A DNA stretch of 32,000 nucleotides, taken from Caldivirga maquilingensis IC-167 (lineage in GTDB: Archaea; Thermoproteota; Thermoprotei; Thermoproteales; Thermocladiaceae). Position numbers and translations under genes: made by a program. The notes under the pieces were generated by a model. The model saw only the letters and a program-made list of their open reading frames with translations. It was not told the DNA's origin and searched no databases. How positions within the stretch are numbered: the first letter of the stretch is position 1; every line of letters starts with the position of its first letter. Positions 1 through 10,424 of this stretch are shown here, one piece after another. Location: NCBI RefSeq assembly GCF_000018305.1, contig NC_009954.1, positions 360,001-392,000 on the forward strand, read 5' to 3'.

Positions 1-2
1 AG

Positions 3-962
3 GACATTATAAATGATTTAATTGAATTAGGATTTAAACCATCAAAGATTAGGGAGTACCACGGCGAAAGCATTGTTACCTGGAGTAATGGATTAATGAA
101 TGTAATTAGCGGTAAGTCAAATGTTGCCTTCGTCACCTCAATAACGTTATTCACGCTACTTAAGGCATTGGGGATTCCCGTTGGTGATAAGGCACTGCAG
201 GCATATAGAGTGCCTGAGTGGGTAATGGAGGCTCCATTGGACGTTAAGGCGGAGTTTTTAGCCGCGTACTTCGGTAGTGAGTTAGAGAGACCGCGGGTTG
301 AGAATAACGGTAGAACATTCCAACCACCAACACTGGTAATACACAAGGCTGAGAACCTGGCTGGGAATGGTATTGAATTCCTAAACGATATTAGGAAACT
401 ACTTAGTGAATTCGGTATAGAGACAACACCCGTGAGCGTTAGCAGTGGCGTCATTAGGAAGAATGGCATTAGGACCGTTAGGTTGAGGTTTTCAATAATT
501 AGTAACACTAATAACTTACTAAGGTTCTTTGGAAGGATAGGCTATGCGTACAATAAGGAACATGACTCACTGGCGGTATTAGCGTATGAGTATCTACGTA
601 GAAAGGTTTTGCTTTGGCAGCATTACGCTGATGCTTATGAATTAACGAGGAAATTAATGAGCGAAGGCTACGACGGACCCAGTATAGTTAAGGCCCTTAG
701 GAGCGCCGGGTATAGGGTTAGTAGGGCCACGGTGTATAAGTGGTTAAAGGGTGTTAAGAATACTAAGTACATAGGTAGAACAGCCAGAATACCATCATTC
801 AGTGATTGGATTATTAAGGCCACACTAGGGCTGGGGAACTCGGGGCTGGTTTGGGATGTGGTCACTGAAGTTAAGCCCATTGAGTGGAATGATAGGCTTT
901 GGGATGTGACCACTGAAAGCTCATACCATAACTTCATTGCAAACGGCCTGGTAACCGGCAAC
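3..962 (+). other. Intein, LAGLIDADG homing-endonuclease type (C-terminal ~320 residues visible; N-terminal splicing block lies outside the window)
   Basis: LAGLIDADG-like helix [18 protein letters not shown] (246..293). Typical endonuclease segments [15 protein letters not shown] and [16 protein letters not shown]. Block F/G-like [22 protein letters not shown] ends in Asn (960..962) and is followed directly by Cys (963..965) of the extein. Confidence 0.85.
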
Positions 963-1193
963 TGTGTCAGGGTCCAGCTTACGAAGAATGGGAAGGTGGT
1001 TACGGCATTCGTGCCGTGGGATGGTGGTTTAAACCTCATTAATGAGCATGATGAGGTGATCATAGAGAGGATCGGTGGCCCAGAGGGTAGGGCTTACGGT
1101 GACCTACCTGGCGTGAGGTTTAAGGTAACTAAAGTTAATGGAGTCAGTCTTAAAGCCATACTACTGGGTAAGAAACAGAAACCAGTTAGATAA
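3..1193 (+). CDS. rps12: 30S ribosomal protein uS12 (S12/S23 family), 5'-truncated by the window edge and interrupted by an intein (intein 3..962, C-extein 963..1193)
   Basis: The frame of ORF 96..1193 stays open back to nt 3 ([19 protein letters not shown]...). The last 76 codons, [76 protein letters not shown], match the conserved C-terminal half of archaeal/eukaryotic uS12 (compare human S23 ...[29 protein letters not shown]...GDIPGVRFKVVKV..VSL). The upstream part is intein-like. Confidence 0.9.
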
Positions 1194-1888
1194 TTAGCCA
1201 TTAACTTAAGTTACATTATTAATTCACTTAATTTAATAATAATAAGTATAAATGCGGTTTGCAAATGCCTAATTTCCCAGCAGTTAATGGTAGTATCACC
1301 TACCCTACTAGTCATTCGTGATCCTATGTTGAACACTATGTATGAATCCTATGAATTGATGGATAACAAATTCATGAAACCCAATGATAACTTCGTTCAT
1401 GTGCCACAACAAACTCCTAGGATCAATGCAAGGATTAGGCGATCGTTGAGCGGGAACTACGTGGGTTTAGAAGAGGTAGCTTGATCCGCCTAGTTACTCC
1501 ATGGATAAGTTATTCATGGATTACTTGGCCGGCGCATCATAAGCCTCTACACTATTGCCGTTAAAGGTGAGGTGCCACAACATAAGGGCACTGTATGAGC
1601 CAGGGATAAAGAGTATGATCAGCCTCAACATTAGGAGGTAGATTTAAGAAAAATAGGTAAATTACGCCTTAACTTACCCTAGCACACTTAACCTAATATT
1701 ACCCAACGTAAAAATTCAACCTCACTGATACAGTACCATAAAGCCTAGCGAATCCAGTGGGTAAGATGTATGGTAGGAGATTAAGTGAGTTAATAAGGCT
1801 CAGAGTACTAGTTGATTAATAAATCAACTCAGTAAAAGGCTAGGTGGTGTAAAGGTTTCCGGAATAATTATCTAGCAAATAATTATAA

Positions 1889-3142
1889 ATGAGTGCAATA
1901 TGTGTATCTAGGGTTATGAATCCAATAGATGATTATATAAAGAACGAGGTCAAGGAGTTAATGGGGGAATCCGCATTCACATACCTGGCTAAGGCACGTG
2001 AGGTAAGTGAGAGGAAGGGCATTAGGGTAATCTCCTTCGGAATTGGGCAGCCGGACTTACCCACATTCCCCAACATAATAAATGCTGCTAAGAGGGCACT
2101 GGATGAGGGATTCACCGGCTACACCGAAACACCGGGCATTAAGGAGCTTAGGGAGGCTGTGGCTGATTACCTAAACCATAGGTACCAGGCAAAGGTGCTT
2201 CCCGAGGAGGTGATAGTGACGACTGGTACAAAGACAGCCATATTCCTAGCCCTGTCAGCCTATGTGAGGCCAGGCGATGAGGTGATAATACCGGATCCCT
2301 CATACCCAGCATATGCGGAGATAACGAAGTTCAACGGTGGGAAGCCCATTTATGTACCCCTAAAATTCAGCGTGGAGGATGGGTTTAGACTTGATGTTGA
2401 GGGTATTGAGGGGGCTTTGACTGATAAGACCAGGGCAGTGGTTATCAATAACCCGCATAACCCCACGGGTACTGTATTCGACGCTAGGGATGTGATGAAG
2501 GTTTTGGATATAGCGAAGGATCATAGGTTATTGGTAATTGTTGATGAGATATACGATAACTTCGTGTACGAGGATACCGTATTTAAGGGTATCCTCGAAC
2601 TTGAGCCCGAGTGGAGGAAGTACATAATCTATACCAATGGCTTTAGTAAGACGTTCTCCATGACCGGTTGGAGGCTCGGTTACCTAGTCACTAGTAGGGA
2701 TGTGGTTAAGTACCTGGAGAGGTTAGCTACAAACGTTTACAGCTGCCCACCATCCATAGCCCAGTGGGCGGGTGTGGAGGCCCTGAGGAGTGGGATGTCG
2801 TGGCGTGAAAGTAGGAGGATGGTTGAGTTATTCAGGAGGCGTAGGGATGTTATGTATGAGGAGTTAAGGAAAATACCCGGTATCGAGGTGTGGAGGGGTA
2901 ATGGGGCATTTTACATGTATCCCAGGGTAGCCCCACTGCTTAATAAGCTGAGTATGGACGTAGAATCCTTCACAAACTGGCTCCTTGAGGACCACGGCGT
3001 GGTGGTACTACCAGGTACTGCATTCTCTGAAACACGTATGGGTAGGGAGTTTGTGAGATTTAGTTATGCACTGGATGAGGGAGACATAAGGGAGGGTGTA
3101 AGGAGAATCCTCAATGCGGTAATGCAGAGGCTAGGTAAATAA
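1889..3142 (+). CDS. Class I/II PLP-dependent aminotransferase (aspartate aminotransferase-like)
   Basis: 417 aa. Motifs VINNPHNPTGTVF and NGFSKTFSMTGWRLGY (PLP-lysine motif). Alternative in-frame start at ATG 1916. Two palindromic ATAATTAT boxes lie at 1864..1871 and 1880..1887, just upstream. Confidence 0.9.
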   Translation: MSAICVSRVMNPIDDYIKNEVKELMGESAFTYLAKAREVSERKGIRVISFGIGQPDLPTFPNIINAAKRALDEGFTGYTETPGIKELREAVADYLNHRYQAKVLPEEVIVTTGTKTAIFLALSAYVRPGDEVIIPDPSYPAYAEITKFNGGKPIYVPLKFSVEDGFRLDVEGIEGALTDKTRAVVINNPHNPTGTVFDARDVMKVLDIAKDHRLLVIVDEIYDNFVYEDTVFKGILELEPEWRKYIIYTNGFSKTFSMTGWRLGYLVTSRDVVKYLERLATNVYSCPPSIAQWAGVEALRSGMSWRESRRMVELFRRRRDVMYEELRKIPGIEVWRGNGAFYMYPRVAPLLNKLSMDVESFTNWLLEDHGVVVLPGTAFSETRMGREFVRFSYALDEGDIREGVRRILNAVMQRLGK

Positions 3143-3168
3143 AGTGCTGCGTTGTGGAAATTAACAAT

Positions 3169-3517
3169 ATGGAGCATGTATACGTTGATGCGACAATATA
3201 CGGGGAGGGAACCAAGAACCGTAAAAGCCCTTGTGGATACGGGCGCCACGTACACGGTCATACCCAGGAAACTGGCTGAGGAACTCGGTATAAGGGGTTT
3301 GGGAACCTTCATTAATGTACTCGCGGCAAAGGGGTATGTAAGGCTTGAGGAGGCCTTGGTCACCATGGAAATAATGAATGAAAGGAGGAATCAAGTGGTG
3401 CTGTTATCGGACAATGCTGACATGGTAATTGTGGGGGTCATAACACTGGAATCCATGGGGTTTATCGCGGATCCAACCACAGGTAAGCTCGAGAGATCAG
3501 GGGTCTTCCTACTCTAG
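3169..3517 (+). CDS. Retropepsin-like (clan AA) aspartic protease, apparently needing a +1 frameshift near 3208..3212
   Basis: ALVDTGATYTVIPRKLAEELGI carries the D-T-G active-site motif. A family-typical N-terminus, MEHVYVDATIYGEG, is encoded from ATG 3169 in the neighbouring frame and runs into the ORF 3152..3517 frame at the G/A run cggggagggaacc. Confidence 0.7.
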
Positions 3518-3788
3518 CAGGGAAGGGCTTAAATACATGGTGGCTTTACACAGATTTGGTACGCCTAGCAATGGTTCACTAATAAAGGCTGTAAGGTTAG
3601 GAGCCAAATACCCAGGATACCATTAAAATTCAAGAAGAACCTAACCCCAAGACGCAGAAACAGCCGAAACTACTATACAAACTGGGCACTAACAGGCAGC
3701 ATAATAAGTCCCGAGGATGTTGGCTACGCAGGTGCAGTTGGGTGGTTGTGTTGGGGTCTTGGTTCGTGGTTTGCTGTTTTGTGGTTAG

Positions 3789-3796
3789 TTTTTTAA
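3789..3796 (+). promoter_or_regulatory. TATA-like box (ttttttaa) upstream of the coiled-coil gene
   Basis: An A/T octamer lies 22 nt upstream of in-frame GTG 3818. This fits the archaeal -26 TATA spacing with a leaderless mRNA. It implies the true start is probably GTG 3818 rather than GTG 3797. Confidence 0.35.
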
Positions 3797-4381
3797 GTGT
3801 TGGTTATTGCCTTGTGTGTGGAGTCTTTGTTGGGTGCCGTTATTGATAAGTCGCTTGAGGCTGTTTTGAGGAAGTTGGAGAAGGGTGAGAGGCTTAAGAC
3901 TGAGGATTTGGTGGTTTTGGTGTTATCTACGGTGAGGGAGCAAAACAGGAGGATAGATGCGCTTAATGATCAAGTTAATAGGAGGATTGATGAGGTGAGT
4001 AAGAGAATTGATATGCTCAATGACCAGGTTAATAGGAGGATTGAGGAGTTGAACAAGAGGATTGATGCGTTAGCGGATCAATTAAATAGGAGGATTGATG
4101 AGACCAACAAGAGAATTAATGAGACCAATAAGAGGATTGACTCATTGAGTGAGCAGGTTAATAAGAGAATTGATGAAACGAATAAGAGGATTGATGCCTT
4201 GAGTGATCAAATAGGTAGGAGGTTTGAGGAGTTGAATATGAGGATTGATGGTGTGTATAATGTGCTTGGTAATATTCAGAGGACCCTTGTTGATATGAGT
4301 AAGATTCTCATGGATCTTCAGAAAGTCATGCTTAGTATTCAGGCTTCTATATCGTCTCAATCGCAGAGGCAAACCCACTAA
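3797..4381 (+). CDS. Coiled-coil protein built from tandem 7- and 11-residue N(K/R)RID-type repeats; function unknown
   Basis: 194-aa ORF. Residues encoded by 3944..4255 read NRRIDAL/NDQVNRRIDEV/SKRIDML/NDQVNRRIEEL/NKRIDAL/ADQLNRRIDET/NKRINET/NKRIDSL/SEQVNKRIDET/NKRIDAL/SDQIGRRFEEL/NMRIDGV. There is no ATG start; a GTG start at 3797 or 3818 is likely. Confidence 0.65.
   Translation: MLVIALCVESLLGAVIDKSLEAVLRKLEKGERLKTEDLVVLVLSTVREQNRRIDALNDQVNRRIDEVSKRIDMLNDQVNRRIEELNKRIDALADQLNRRIDETNKRINETNKRIDSLSEQVNKRIDETNKRIDALSDQIGRRFEELNMRIDGVYNVLGNIQRTLVDMSKILMDLQKVMLSIQASISSQSQRQTH
3944..4255 (+). repeat. Intragenic tandem repeat: five 54-nt (18-codon = 7+11) units plus one extra 21-nt unit
   Basis: The DNA pattern gat-nnn-ytn-ant-gay-car-ntn-aat-agg-agg-att-gak-gag-nnn-aay-aag-agr-att recurs directly. 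Confidence 0.85.
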
Positions 4382-4384
4382 CGC

Positions 4385-4639
4385 CCAGGGAACCCATTAT
4401 ATCCCCAACCACGTGAGTACTAGGCTTCAGGAAAGCTAAAGCGAAGACCAACCTATCGAAACTCCTCCTCACGGGATCCTCTATAAGGCTCTGCCAATGG
4501 GGGATCACTGAACTCATTATAAGCCATATATCAGTAAACCCAACCTCCCCTCAATATACCTAGCCATGGAGGATATGCACTCCCCATAGGAACCCCTCCT
4601 GGAACCATGACCAACAATGATCACCGCAACATTACTCAT
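4385..4639 (-). pseudogene. cbiX: Small sirohydrochlorin cobaltochelatase (CbiX-S)-like pseudogene with at least two frameshifts
   Basis: Minus strand from ATG 4639: MSNVAVIIVGHGSRRGSYGECISSMARYIEGRLG...stop (GHGSR motif). It continues in a second frame as YMAYNEFSDPPLAE, then in a third as LIEDPVRRSFDRLVFALAFLKPSTHVVGDIMGSLG (compare the CbiX pattern ..rivvvPlFL..G.H...DIp). Confidence 0.5.
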
Positions 4640-5231
4640 TAACATATGATCAACATCCAATTAATAAGCATTACGAAACCAAAAACCACAACAACGAACC
4701 AGAAACACCCAAGGACCCACGCATGATCATTTAATGGTTCTGAAAAATTAGGGGATAATAATAGACATGCAAATTATCATTAAAATAACTAGACAGGATA
4801 AAGCCGTAGTCAGGAAGTACGTGGAAAATAATGACACCAATTAGTAATGAAACTCCGGAGTAAAATATACCACTGACAGTAAAATCTAGAGGAAACATCC
4901 ATGCTACCCAATGCATGTCTATGCTAAGTAAGCTGGAATTTAAGATGGATGACCACATACAGCGCAATCATCACCATTGAGTACAATGCACCTAGGGCCT
5001 CAGTATATTTACCCCCTGTATTTAGTTCCTCCTCGCATTGAACTTATACTCTATTCCCCTTACCGTTTCTAGGATCCATTGCTTTTGAAACTCTTCGAAA
5101 GTCACGCACCCCGTGTCCCTGCATCCCATAACATTGGAATCCATGGAGATTCATCACAGACCCAGTGGTAGTGGCCGTGAGGCTTGCCAAGGGTGGGTTC
5201 AGGACCCCGGATACCTTAATTAATTTAACCC

Positions 5232-5290
5232 ACTAAGGTTAATGAAGTTAACCTTAAAGCCATACTACTGGGTGAGAAGCAGAAACTATG
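5232..5290 (+). pseudogene. Decayed duplicate of the rps12 3' end (core of a probable rps12 relic)
   Basis: 5232..5286 aligns without gaps to 1128..1182 with 48/55 identities and a perfect 21-mer cttaaagccatactactgggt (1149..1169 = 5253..5273). It encodes TKVNEVNLKAILLGEKQK versus [18 protein letters not shown]. Stops occur in frame immediately upstream, and the stop codon is lost downstream. Confidence 0.75.
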
Positions 5291-5372
5291 GGTGTTTAGT
5301 GGGTTCGCGTGTTTTATGCTGCTTGTTGAGTTTTGTGGGAATGTTTAAAAGTAGGATAATTATCCTAATTCC

Positions 5373-6614
5373 GTGACCCTAATGACGAATGATCACTGGG
5401 GTGAAGCACACACCGTCGCATTCACGGTGTTTAGCCTAAGCACCACGATTGAAGCCTACATATACTCAATCTCATATCTAGCCACTGGCTGGGTGGTTAC
5501 ACCAAGGTACTTAACAGCATTATTAACGGTTTGGCCACCACTATGGTTACTAATCGGCGGCGCCGTGGCTGGTCCCCTCTCTGATGCGCTTGGTAGGAGG
5601 AGGGTACTTTACTTAACCCTACTAATGTATGTCGTCGGTGCCGTTGGCTTAATGATTAGTCAAGGGTATGTGATGCTTCTAATATTCCTAAGCCTACTAC
5701 TGGTAGCCACTGGTGGTGAGTATAATACAGTTATGACTGCTGCCCATGAGTACTTCCCAAGTAGGCTTAGGGGTAGGTTAGTTTTCCTAATACTTAACTT
5801 CACTAATCTAGGTGGCGTATTGGCTGCAGCATTAACGCTACTTAACGTTAACCCGATGATGCAGAGGGTGGCGTTGGGGGCTACGTTAATAATCATACTA
5901 CCTCTACTGTATGCGCTTAGGCGAATGCTCCCTGAATCCGTACTGTGGCTGGAGGCTGTTGGTAAGGTTAATGAAGTAAACACCATTGATTCACCCCATG
6001 AGTATACTGTGAGGATTAGGTTGCCTCCAACGTGGTTAAGGGTAATGGTGGGTGGGTTAATTGGATGGGCTTATACGGCTGGGTTCAGTTTACTGGCGTT
6101 AACCCTTGGACCATACTTCCTACCAAGCTTAACCAATTGGTTGATTCTCGTGTTTTCCACAGCGGCATTAGTGTCAGGGGTGGTGATAGGTTTATTGGCT
6201 GATTCAGTGAGTAGGAGAGTGATGCTTGCTGCCTCGTCACTGGGGTCAACACTCATTACCTTAATACTGGCGTTCACCACAAATACATGGATGCGTAACC
6301 TAGGCGTGTTCTGGGGCTTATTCACAGTATTCTCAATACTAATTAACGCATACTTCCTAACCGAGGACACGCTTAAATCAGAGTACTGGAGGGTGATTAG
6401 GAGGGGAACCTACACTGCATTGGTTAGGGTTATTTCACTGGGTGGCTCAATCCCAGTGTTATTCGCCTCAGCCTACATACCGATGAAACTATACCTACTT
6501 GTCGACTCAATAATACTGGGGGTTGGGGCTGCTGCAAGCATAGTCTGGTACATTGTGGGTGTGGAAACAGGTAAGGGTATAAGCGTGAGGGCTTGGGGTC
6601 TTGAGGATGCTTGA
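5373..6614 (+). CDS. Major facilitator superfamily (MFS) transporter
   Basis: 413 aa with about 12 hydrophobic segments. MFS motif A, GPLSDALGRRRVL, lies between TM2 and TM3. TATA-like tttaaaag at 5344..5351. Confidence 0.8.
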   Translation: MTLMTNDHWGEAHTVAFTVFSLSTTIEAYIYSISYLATGWVVTPRYLTALLTVWPPLWLLIGGAVAGPLSDALGRRRVLYLTLLMYVVGAVGLMISQGYVMLLIFLSLLLVATGGEYNTVMTAAHEYFPSRLRGRLVFLILNFTNLGGVLAAALTLLNVNPMMQRVALGATLIIILPLLYALRRMLPESVLWLEAVGKVNEVNTIDSPHEYTVRIRLPPTWLRVMVGGLIGWAYTAGFSLLALTLGPYFLPSLTNWLILVFSTAALVSGVVIGLLADSVSRRVMLAASSLGSTLITLILAFTTNTWMRNLGVFWGLFTVFSILINAYFLTEDTLKSEYWRVIRRGTYTALVRVISLGGSIPVLFASAYIPMKLYLLVDSIILGVGAAASIVWYIVGVETGKGISVRAWGLEDA

Positions 6615-7913: not shown

Positions 7914-8217
7914 GAGTTATGTTGAATAAACCTAGGCCAAGCGTTACATTACTTAGTAATTGAGTTGAATTAATAATGAGGCATCCATACTGCCCCGGGT
8001 TAATTAAAGCCTCACTGGAGCCAGCCATTAATGTTACCTCCAGTGGCGTCTTATTGCTTACGCACACCTTAGTACTGTATATGTTACCTACCTGGGAGAC
8101 TGTTAAGGTTAGGTTCTTCACTATAACCATTATTGAGAGAATTACGGTTAATACCTCAATGACCAGTATTAGCATTATGAACGCCTCAATGACCTTGCCC
8201 AACATAGGTTTGAACAC
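7891..8217 (-). CDS. Small membrane-anchored protein with a sequon-rich extracytoplasmic domain, unknown function
   Basis: 108 aa. N-terminal TM segment (IEAFIMLILVIEVLTVILSIMVIV) followed by five N-x-S/T sequons (NLT, NKT, NST, NVT, NIT). Confidence 0.5.
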   Translation of the reverse strand: MFKPMLGKVIEAFIMLILVIEVLTVILSIMVIVKNLTLTVSQVGNIYSTKVCVSNKTPLEVTLMAGSSEALINPGQYGCLIINSTQLLSNVTLGLGLFNITLGVEYAR

Positions 8218-10218: not shown

Positions 10219-10264
10219 CCAAAACACATCCTAATTCCTTTACTTTCAATCCCTTATTCTTTCT

Positions 10265-10424
10265 CTTTCTAATCCCTTTTGGGATTTACATGCAAATTCC
10301 GAATCAGAAGCAAACATTAAAGAAAATACTAATCTTTCTAATCCCTTTTGGGATTTACAAGCTCAGGAAACCAGCCACGATTCAAGAACTCATTTTACTC
10401 TTTCTAATCCCTTTTGGGATTTAC
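10265..10424 (-). CRISPR. Mini CRISPR array: 3 identical 25-nt repeats and 2 spacers (44 and 41 nt); crRNA sense inferred on the minus strand
   Basis: Repeats ctttctaatcccttttgggatttac at 10265..10289, 10334..10358 and 10400..10424. The reverse complement, GTAAATCCCAAAAGGGATTAGAAAG, closely resembles the Sulfolobus repeat GATTAATCCCAAAAGGAATTGAAAG, including the ...GAAAG 3' end. A degenerate partial repeat lies at 10243..10264. Confidence 0.8.

Follow-up and report, generated by a model that had tools for sequence, protein, structure and literature searches.

Downstream of the intein-containing rps12 gene of Caldivirga maquilingensis IC-167, which encodes the ribosomal protein uS12, a short piece of the same gene appears a second time. 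Both copies lie in a stretch of 32,000 nucleotides (contig NC_009954.1, positions 360,001 to 392,000), referred to here as the window and used for all coordinates unless another contig is named. What is the second copy, and how did it come to lie some 4 kb away from the gene that it resembles? The first-pass annotation regarded it as a dead rps12 paralogue without an intein. The analysis presented below points to a different origin, in which the 3' part of the original gene was displaced by DNA from another genus.

The functional rps12 gene and its partial copy

The window begins inside the intein. It is 100% identical to part of Logan contig L001, in which window position 1 corresponds to position 8113, and the full gene (L001:7320-9305) can be read there. 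It comes after the genes for L30e and NusA and encodes 661 aa, of which 71 form the N-extein, 514 the intein and 76 the C-extein; its NCBI name is 'intein-containing 30S ribosomal protein S12'. Within the window, the C-terminal part of the intein occupies 1..962 on the plus strand (Pfam Intein_splicing, LAGLIDADG_3 and Ribosom_S12_S23), and the C-extein, including the stop codon, occupies 963..1193 (+).

The 3' end of this gene contains the first copy of a 55-nt direct repeat (1128..1182, +). The second copy, termed the relic, is found at 5232..5286 (+) and corresponds to C-extein nt 166-220. The two match without gaps at 48/55 positions and share a perfect 21-mer (blastn E 5e-13), which confirms the similarity noted in the first-pass annotation, and in tblastn the relic reads as TKVNEVNLKAILLGEKQK, in the rps12 frame, aligned to 18 aa of the gene. 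Three of its seven differences from the functional gene are relic-specific and non-synonymous. The relic is of the Caldivirga type at all informative sites (6/6), matching the Caldivirga alleles L096, L084 and L088 at 50/55 positions, its own gene at 48/55, Vulcanisaeta thermophila at 42/55 and the Vulcanisaeta alleles overall at 38-42/55. Among 91 rps12 loci tested, that of C. maquilingensis is the only one with a second copy of its own rps12 3' end. Scans for tRNAs and Rfam families gave no match near the relic.

Homology to rps12 stops at 5232. Upstream of this position no collinear similarity was found by blastn (word size 7) or tblastn (word size 2). A frameshift-tolerant protein-to-DNA alignment of uS12 residues 1-126, with the exteins joined and the N-extein taken from L001, to positions 4800-5231 scored 24, against 26.5 +/- 3.5 in 200 shuffles (157/200 reached 24) and 27.4 +/- 4.5 in 120 other stretches of the window. 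The collinear matches that had been proposed by eye between about 4910 and 5115 (NLRW, Y-PL..P-RIEL, PLTVSRIHC and KVTHPV) are at chance level. Sensitive alignment thus recovers only the 3' core, an outcome that the first-pass annotation had itself named as contrary to its reading, and what had been taken for a decayed gene of nearly full length is reduced to 55 nt of C-extein. The same annotation held that the relic carries a mutated homing site and would escape cleavage by the endonuclease. There is no basis for this, since the relic starts 165 nt beyond the intein insertion site (963) and contains no homing site. Its broader view, that the stretch derives from rps12, is non-functional and records a replacement or rearrangement at rps12, is upheld.

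An intein fragment beside the relic

The 28 nt in front of the relic (5204..5231, +) are the 5' end of the rps12 intein. They match intein nt 7-34 of C. maquilingensis's own gene at 25/28 positions (blastn E 1e-4), the best of 200 shuffles reaching 19/28, and in tblastn with the intein as query positions 5204-5230 encode TPDTLINLT, which are intein residues 3-11. The fragment directly abuts the 55-mer and is collinear with it. In the functional gene, intein nt 7-34 lie upstream of the window, and the fragment was missed in the earlier reading because the part of the intein that it matches is outside the stretch then available. The relic can no longer be called intein-free: its flank being intein-derived, its parent copy contained the intein and has lost 1.67 kb from its interior. 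Also lost are the last 11 nt of the coding sequence, the stop codon and about 20 nt of spacer, and the displaced copy would originally have extended from intein nt 7 to the gene end, a length of about 1.77 kb. The two pieces together are an 83-nt scar without evident function, not a dead intein-free paralogue.

From left to right, the sequence around the scar consists of a retropepsin-like gene fragment (5127-5164), an SDR gene fragment (5164-5203), the intein fragment (5204-5231), the C-extein fragment (5232-5286), the native spacer and the MFS transporter gene. At the junction 5203/5204, SDR codon 33 is joined in frame to intein codon 3, two sequences that are unrelated; the agreement of frame may be due to chance, the probability being 1 in 3. 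As a speculative aside, a displaced intein with its endonuclease could just after the event have been expressed as a fusion protein from the SDR promoter.

The locus in related genomes

Loci of the relatives were reached by tracing MFS and aminotransferase homologues to their contigs; a uS12 scan of genome contigs favoured intein-free uS12, and the closest relatives were missed there. In five other Caldivirga-like lineages, rps12 is followed by a spacer of about 105 nt and then by genes for an MFS transporter and PfkB, whether the intein is present (L084-L087 and L096) or absent (L088 and L089, with an rps12 of 147 aa). The suggestion that related strains might hold an intact intein-free rps12 at this locus is borne out by the latter two, yet these genes are orthologues and not the source of the relic.

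In C. maquilingensis the native rps12-MFS spacer is found directly behind the relic (5287..5372, +). It is orthologous to the spacer that stands right after rps12 in the relatives, and its promoter-like box TTTAAAAGTAGGATAATTATCC aligns with their conserved promoter-like box TTTAAAA.TAGGATAATTATCC. The alignment continues into the MFS gene (5373..6614, +), the native downstream neighbour of rps12 in Caldivirga, and window positions 5310-5617 are 82.6% identical to L096. The relic therefore occupies the site of the original gene end, which establishes 1194-5231 as an insertion.

Among the Vulcanisaeta and Caldivirga genomes examined (including L038, L090, L091 and L094), the DNA after rps12 is different in every one, the neighbours being a macro-domain gene, an FAD oxidoreductase gene, the aminotransferase block or an M20 peptidase gene. 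Rearrangement seems to have a hot spot at the end of the rpo-L30e-NusA-S12 operon. In Vulcanisaeta sp. JCM 16159, the MFS and PfkB genes are inverted 5 kb downstream of rps12, and an inversion breakpoint was considered as the origin of the C. maquilingensis arrangement and dropped given the empty sites in Caldivirga. Elsewhere in the window, a mini CRISPR array of three repeats (Rfam CRISPR-DR17, 10260-10424) lies between genes for CTP synthase and FAA hydrolase, which overlap in Caldivirga sp. L084; the array looks like another C. maquilingensis-specific insertion.

Content and affinity of the inserted DNA

The foreign affinity of the insert is established by its identity of 79-88% to the V. 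thermophila DNA (L091) that directly follows rps12. In that genome rps12 (without an intein) is succeeded by a DUF3834 ORF, an aminotransferase gene, a retropepsin-like gene, rps30e, and genes for an SDR, a thiolase and ChsH2, after which a coiled-coil gene follows on the minus strand. Window positions 960-3673 are in continuous alignment with this neighbourhood, at 79% identity over the C-extein and DUF3834 region (960-1480; L091 8780-9315) and 86% from the aminotransferase gene to rps30e (1482-3673; L091 9515-11756). Farther along, the insert contains a 36-nt fragment of the SDR gene 3' end (3687..3722, +; L091 12717-12752, 94%), an inverted match to the coiled-coil DNA (3780-4067; L091 15135-14846, 88%) and SDR codons 24-33 (5174-5203; L091 12146-12175, 30/30).

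The genes of the insert differ in their state of preservation. Closest to rps12 is a DUF3834 pseudogene (1275..1820, +), a homologue of the 252-aa ORF that adjoins rps12 in V. thermophila. It has lost its start codon through an 11-nt deletion and about 200 nt from its interior, and what still matches is spread over three frames. The class I/II aminotransferase gene that follows (1889..3142, +; NCBI start probably 1916) is intact. At the amino acid level it has 92% identity to the V. thermophila enzyme and 72-75% to the aminotransferases of every other Caldivirga and Vulcanisaeta, in whose genomes the gene adjoins a beta-lactamase-family gene. The gene for a retropepsin-like aspartyl protease (3152..3517, +) has 92% amino acid identity to V. 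thermophila over residues 12-119, and its N-terminal part is in another frame. The copy of rps30e (3561..3690, +) has an ATG changed to ACG, a frameshift caused by a 1-nt deletion and a further 10-nt deletion. It is a true ribosomal-protein pseudogene, unlike the one that had been claimed for rps12.

Compared with V. thermophila, the region 3687-5163 is rearranged: it has the coiled-coil gene in inverted orientation, a CbiX-like remnant and a duplicated fragment of the retropepsin-like gene, and it lacks the thiolase and ChsH2 genes. The coiled-coil protein gene (3797..4381, +) is intact, and over its first 290 nt it has 88% identity to the 159-aa gene of V. thermophila, where the orientation is the opposite one. 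Two abutting short ORFs on the minus strand (4347..4660) jointly show a weak likeness to the small CbiX (sirohydrochlorin cobaltochelatase). They have no Pfam match, and their three best PDB matches are all CbiX (E 0.07-0.5), collinear over both ORFs; this is probably a frameshifted pseudogene. About 470 nt (4660-5126) have no recognisable origin. The 3' part of the retropepsin-like gene recurs in a short stretch (5127..5164, +; 31/38 to 3439-3475) beside the fragment of the SDR gene 5' end (5164..5203, +), which forms the right end of the foreign insert and has lost about 21 nt just upstream of 5174. The SDR gene survives in scraps only, and the 38-nt retropepsin-like copy beside its fragment hints that the right end was formerly a longer duplicated segment. 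Attempts to derive 3687-5163 from the V. thermophila order by single inversions or deletions did not reconstruct its history.

Pfam searches found no integrase or mobile-element domains in the ORFs or in six-frame fragments of 1194-1889 and 4340-5232, regions in which a heavily decayed remnant is possible, and no remnants of SSV-type split integrases or pNOB8-type integrases in the six-frame fragments of the same two regions. Collinearity with L091 and the lack of a recognisable integrase or mobile-element domain indicate that the insert is ordinary chromosomal DNA of a V. thermophila-like organism. V. thermophila itself, about 86% identical and intein-free, would be donor-like only, and the direction of transfer is deduced from sequence comparison.

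A mosaic rps12 gene

The functional rps12 gene is itself a mosaic, as the assignment of its informative sites establishes. Three Caldivirga alleles are identical to each other and different from V. thermophila at 49 sites. At nine of these (-37, -34, -19, 977, 998, 1004, 1013, 1064 and 1082) the C. maquilingensis gene has the V. thermophila type, and all nine are contiguous, an arrangement for which combinatorics give a chance of ~2e-8. The N-extein is Caldivirga-type (nt 1-170) until 70 nt before the intein site. The V. thermophila-type tracts on both sides of that site are identical to V. thermophila at 153/165 positions (~93%), as against ~83% to the Caldivirga alleles, and the part within the C-extein (963-1084) matches V. 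thermophila at 113/122. Positions 1122-1193 are Caldivirga-type, with 67/72 identities to L088 and L089 versus 55/72 to V. thermophila, and the informative sites at 1123-1165 agree with this. The two switches of type within the gene are thereby placed between -70 and -37 and between 1082 and 1123. Past the stop codon, the DNA is V. thermophila-like again.

The intein is absent from V. thermophila rps12 and present in V. souniana and other Vulcanisaeta. At the DNA level, its alleles in C. maquilingensis, L096, L084 and V. souniana are mutually ~75-79% identical, whereas the N-exteins separate the genera (~88% within Caldivirga versus 66-76% between genera). With its alleles about equally distant across two genera, the intein departs from the host tree, which suggests that the uS12 intein has moved between Caldivirga and Vulcanisaeta. 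This intein is widespread and already annotated, being present also in many Nitrososphaeria and DPANN proteins.

A proposed history of the locus

We consider it likely that the scar is the original end of the intein-containing rps12 gene, moved about 4 kb downstream by a Vulcanisaeta-like insertion. The ancestor of C. maquilingensis had an intein-containing rps12 directly before the MFS gene, the order still seen in its relatives. A piece of a V. thermophila-like chromosome carrying rps12 and the DUF3834, aminotransferase, retropepsin-like, rps30e and SDR genes would then have entered the cell. On its left side it would have been integrated via the conserved rps12 gene, which served as a homologous anchor, and on its right side an illegitimate junction would have linked SDR codon 33 to the resident gene at a point 6 nt into the intein. 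This would have severed the resident intein and C-extein from their promoter and N-extein and shifted them some 4 kb downstream, where they stayed beside their own spacer and the MFS gene. Deletions totalling 1.67 kb would later have reduced the displaced copy to 28 nt of intein and 55 nt of C-extein, and the redundant DUF3834, rps30e and SDR genes of the insert would have decayed. The last ~70 nt of the functional gene would either have remained native-type or have reverted by conversion. We infer this mechanism, the order of its steps and the direction of transfer from the present arrangement of the locus.

One-sided homology with illegitimate joining may have been the mechanism, or else a variant with a template switch, both copies then being resident. 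A simple capture in one step does not predict the Caldivirga-type patch (1122-1193) that lies between two V. thermophila-like stretches, and this patch might be accounted for in two ways. It could result from gene conversion by a still complete displaced copy. Alternatively, the V. thermophila-type tract around the intein could be a separate feature, produced for example by homing co-conversion; the left junction of the foreign block would then fall in the last ~28 nt of rps12, and a switch of template to the sister chromosome would have duplicated resident DNA. Between relic and gene, 7 of the 10 differences are synonymous third-position changes (p ~0.09, a rough binomial estimate), which hints that the two were already distinct alleles before the event. 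Campbell-type integration of a circularised donor fragment was also considered and is rejected. It predicts a donor-type relic or a donor-type functional 3' end, both of which are Caldivirga-type here, and it cannot yield the V. thermophila-type sites in the N-extein.

Other explanations of the repeat have to be weighed against displacement of the resident gene end. Had an integrase-driven mobile element targeted the 3' end of rps12 and carried its own copy of it, the result would be an att-like duplication much like the one seen, with an imperfect 55-nt direct repeat and a perfect 21-nt core bounding a 4.1-kb insert that is absent from relatives. We regard this as very unlikely, because neither the ORFs nor the six-frame fragments of the decayed regions gave a recognisable integrase or mobile-element domain and the content and order of the insert are those of the ordinary V. 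thermophila rps12 neighbourhood. Both copies of the repeat are moreover resident-type, and the 5' piece of the intein kept by the displaced copy implies a segment once about 1.77 kb long, which is no att core. That an intein-free rps12 paralogue of nearly full length decayed in place is improbable in the extreme. The 55-nt match is real and in the rps12 frame, but upstream of 5232 there is no above-chance homology at the DNA or protein level, frameshifts allowed; the 28 nt beside the match come from the intein, positions 5164-5203 from an SDR gene, and the relatives place the relic exactly at the original gene-end site. Hardly any credence can be given to chance similarity, or to functional mimicry by, for example, an antisense or regulatory element directed at rps12 mRNA; nothing speaks for either beyond the existence of the repeat. 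The E value of 5e-13 and a position orthologous to the gene end in relatives argue against both, as do the absence of an Rfam family match at the relic and of any such copy in other lineages among the 91 loci; three relic-specific, non-synonymous differences among seven, together with a deleted end, are as in neutral decay.

Intein homing provides another possible route. The endonuclease would have cut an intein-free rps12, incoming or resident, repair would have over-run into the downstream DNA of the donor, and end joining would have closed the break; we think this unlikely. Equally doubtful is the attendant proposition that a single aberrant event gave rise to the V. thermophila-type tract, the 4-kb block and the relic alike. 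The tract flanks the intein site (-37 to -19 and 977-1082), as a co-conversion tract would, the illegitimate junction is only 6 nt inside the intein, the block is of the same donor lineage as the tract, and the nearly equal distances among Caldivirga and Vulcanisaeta intein alleles (75-79% DNA identity) imply that the intein moves between genera. However, V. thermophila itself has no intein, and the Caldivirga-type patch at 1122-1193 splits the tract from the block. The relic, being resident-type and attached to intein sequence, implies a resident allele that had already been invaded and was uncleavable, and two independent events fit the data equally well.

Significance and comparison with known systems

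The annotation of this locus is corrected, in that no dead intein-free rps12 paralogue is present. In its place stands a concrete and dated case of chromosomal DNA transfer between two genera of hyperthermophilic crenarchaea, for which a conserved ribosomal protein gene was the anchor. The transfer delivered an aminotransferase gene that was retained, and its neighbours decayed. If the reading of tract, block and relic as a single homing event were true, an endonuclease in a universally conserved ribosomal gene would have been the entry point for DNA of another genus. If the intein is linked to the insert, homing endonucleases would be suggested to promote gene transfer beyond their own spread. 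To our knowledge, one-sided homologous capture has not been demonstrated in the Thermoproteales or in a crenarchaeon. The kind of event is known, and the archaeal, inter-genus and intein-adjacent setting gives the case a modest interest.

The locus shares features with four known systems. As in att duplications made by integrative elements, a direct repeat of a gene 3' end bounds inserted DNA and the gene is left intact; unlike in these, no integrase or mobile-element genes were found, and the displaced segment once held an intein. The donor-type tract that flanks the intein site of the functional rps12 gene on either side resembles the outcome of co-conversion of extein flanks in the course of intein homing (mentioned in PMC10643990). 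The locus differs from such cases in that the nearest donor-like genome is intein-free and any link between tract and insert is tentative.

One-sided homologous capture that leaves orphaned 3' ends is already established, and the event proposed here is of this known kind (PMC3240628; PMC5361080). In homology-facilitated illegitimate recombination, described in transformable bacteria and E. coli, a homologous anchor on one side is combined with an illegitimate second junction (PMC3240628). The C. maquilingensis locus resembles it in three respects. In the donor-like L091, the counterpart of the foreign DNA runs on directly from a homologue of the anchor gene, one junction lies in homologous sequence and has left a mosaic rps12, and the other joins the unrelated SDR codon 33 and intein codon 3. 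It differs in having the illegitimate junction upstream of the anchor end, so that resident sequence was displaced and not deleted, and in a functional rps12 3' end of the resident type, for which an extra step is needed. C-terminal displacement leaving orphan 3' ends is known from Rhs, CDI and T6SS effector loci (PMC5361080 and references therein), where, as here, incoming DNA with a conserved 5' part displaces the old 3' part, which becomes a promoterless downstream remnant. The displaced ends in those systems are variable toxin domains, kept with immunity genes and perhaps reused, whereas rps12 is an essential ribosomal protein gene and the part displaced from it, nearly the same in sequence as the part that took its place, has eroded to 83 nt.
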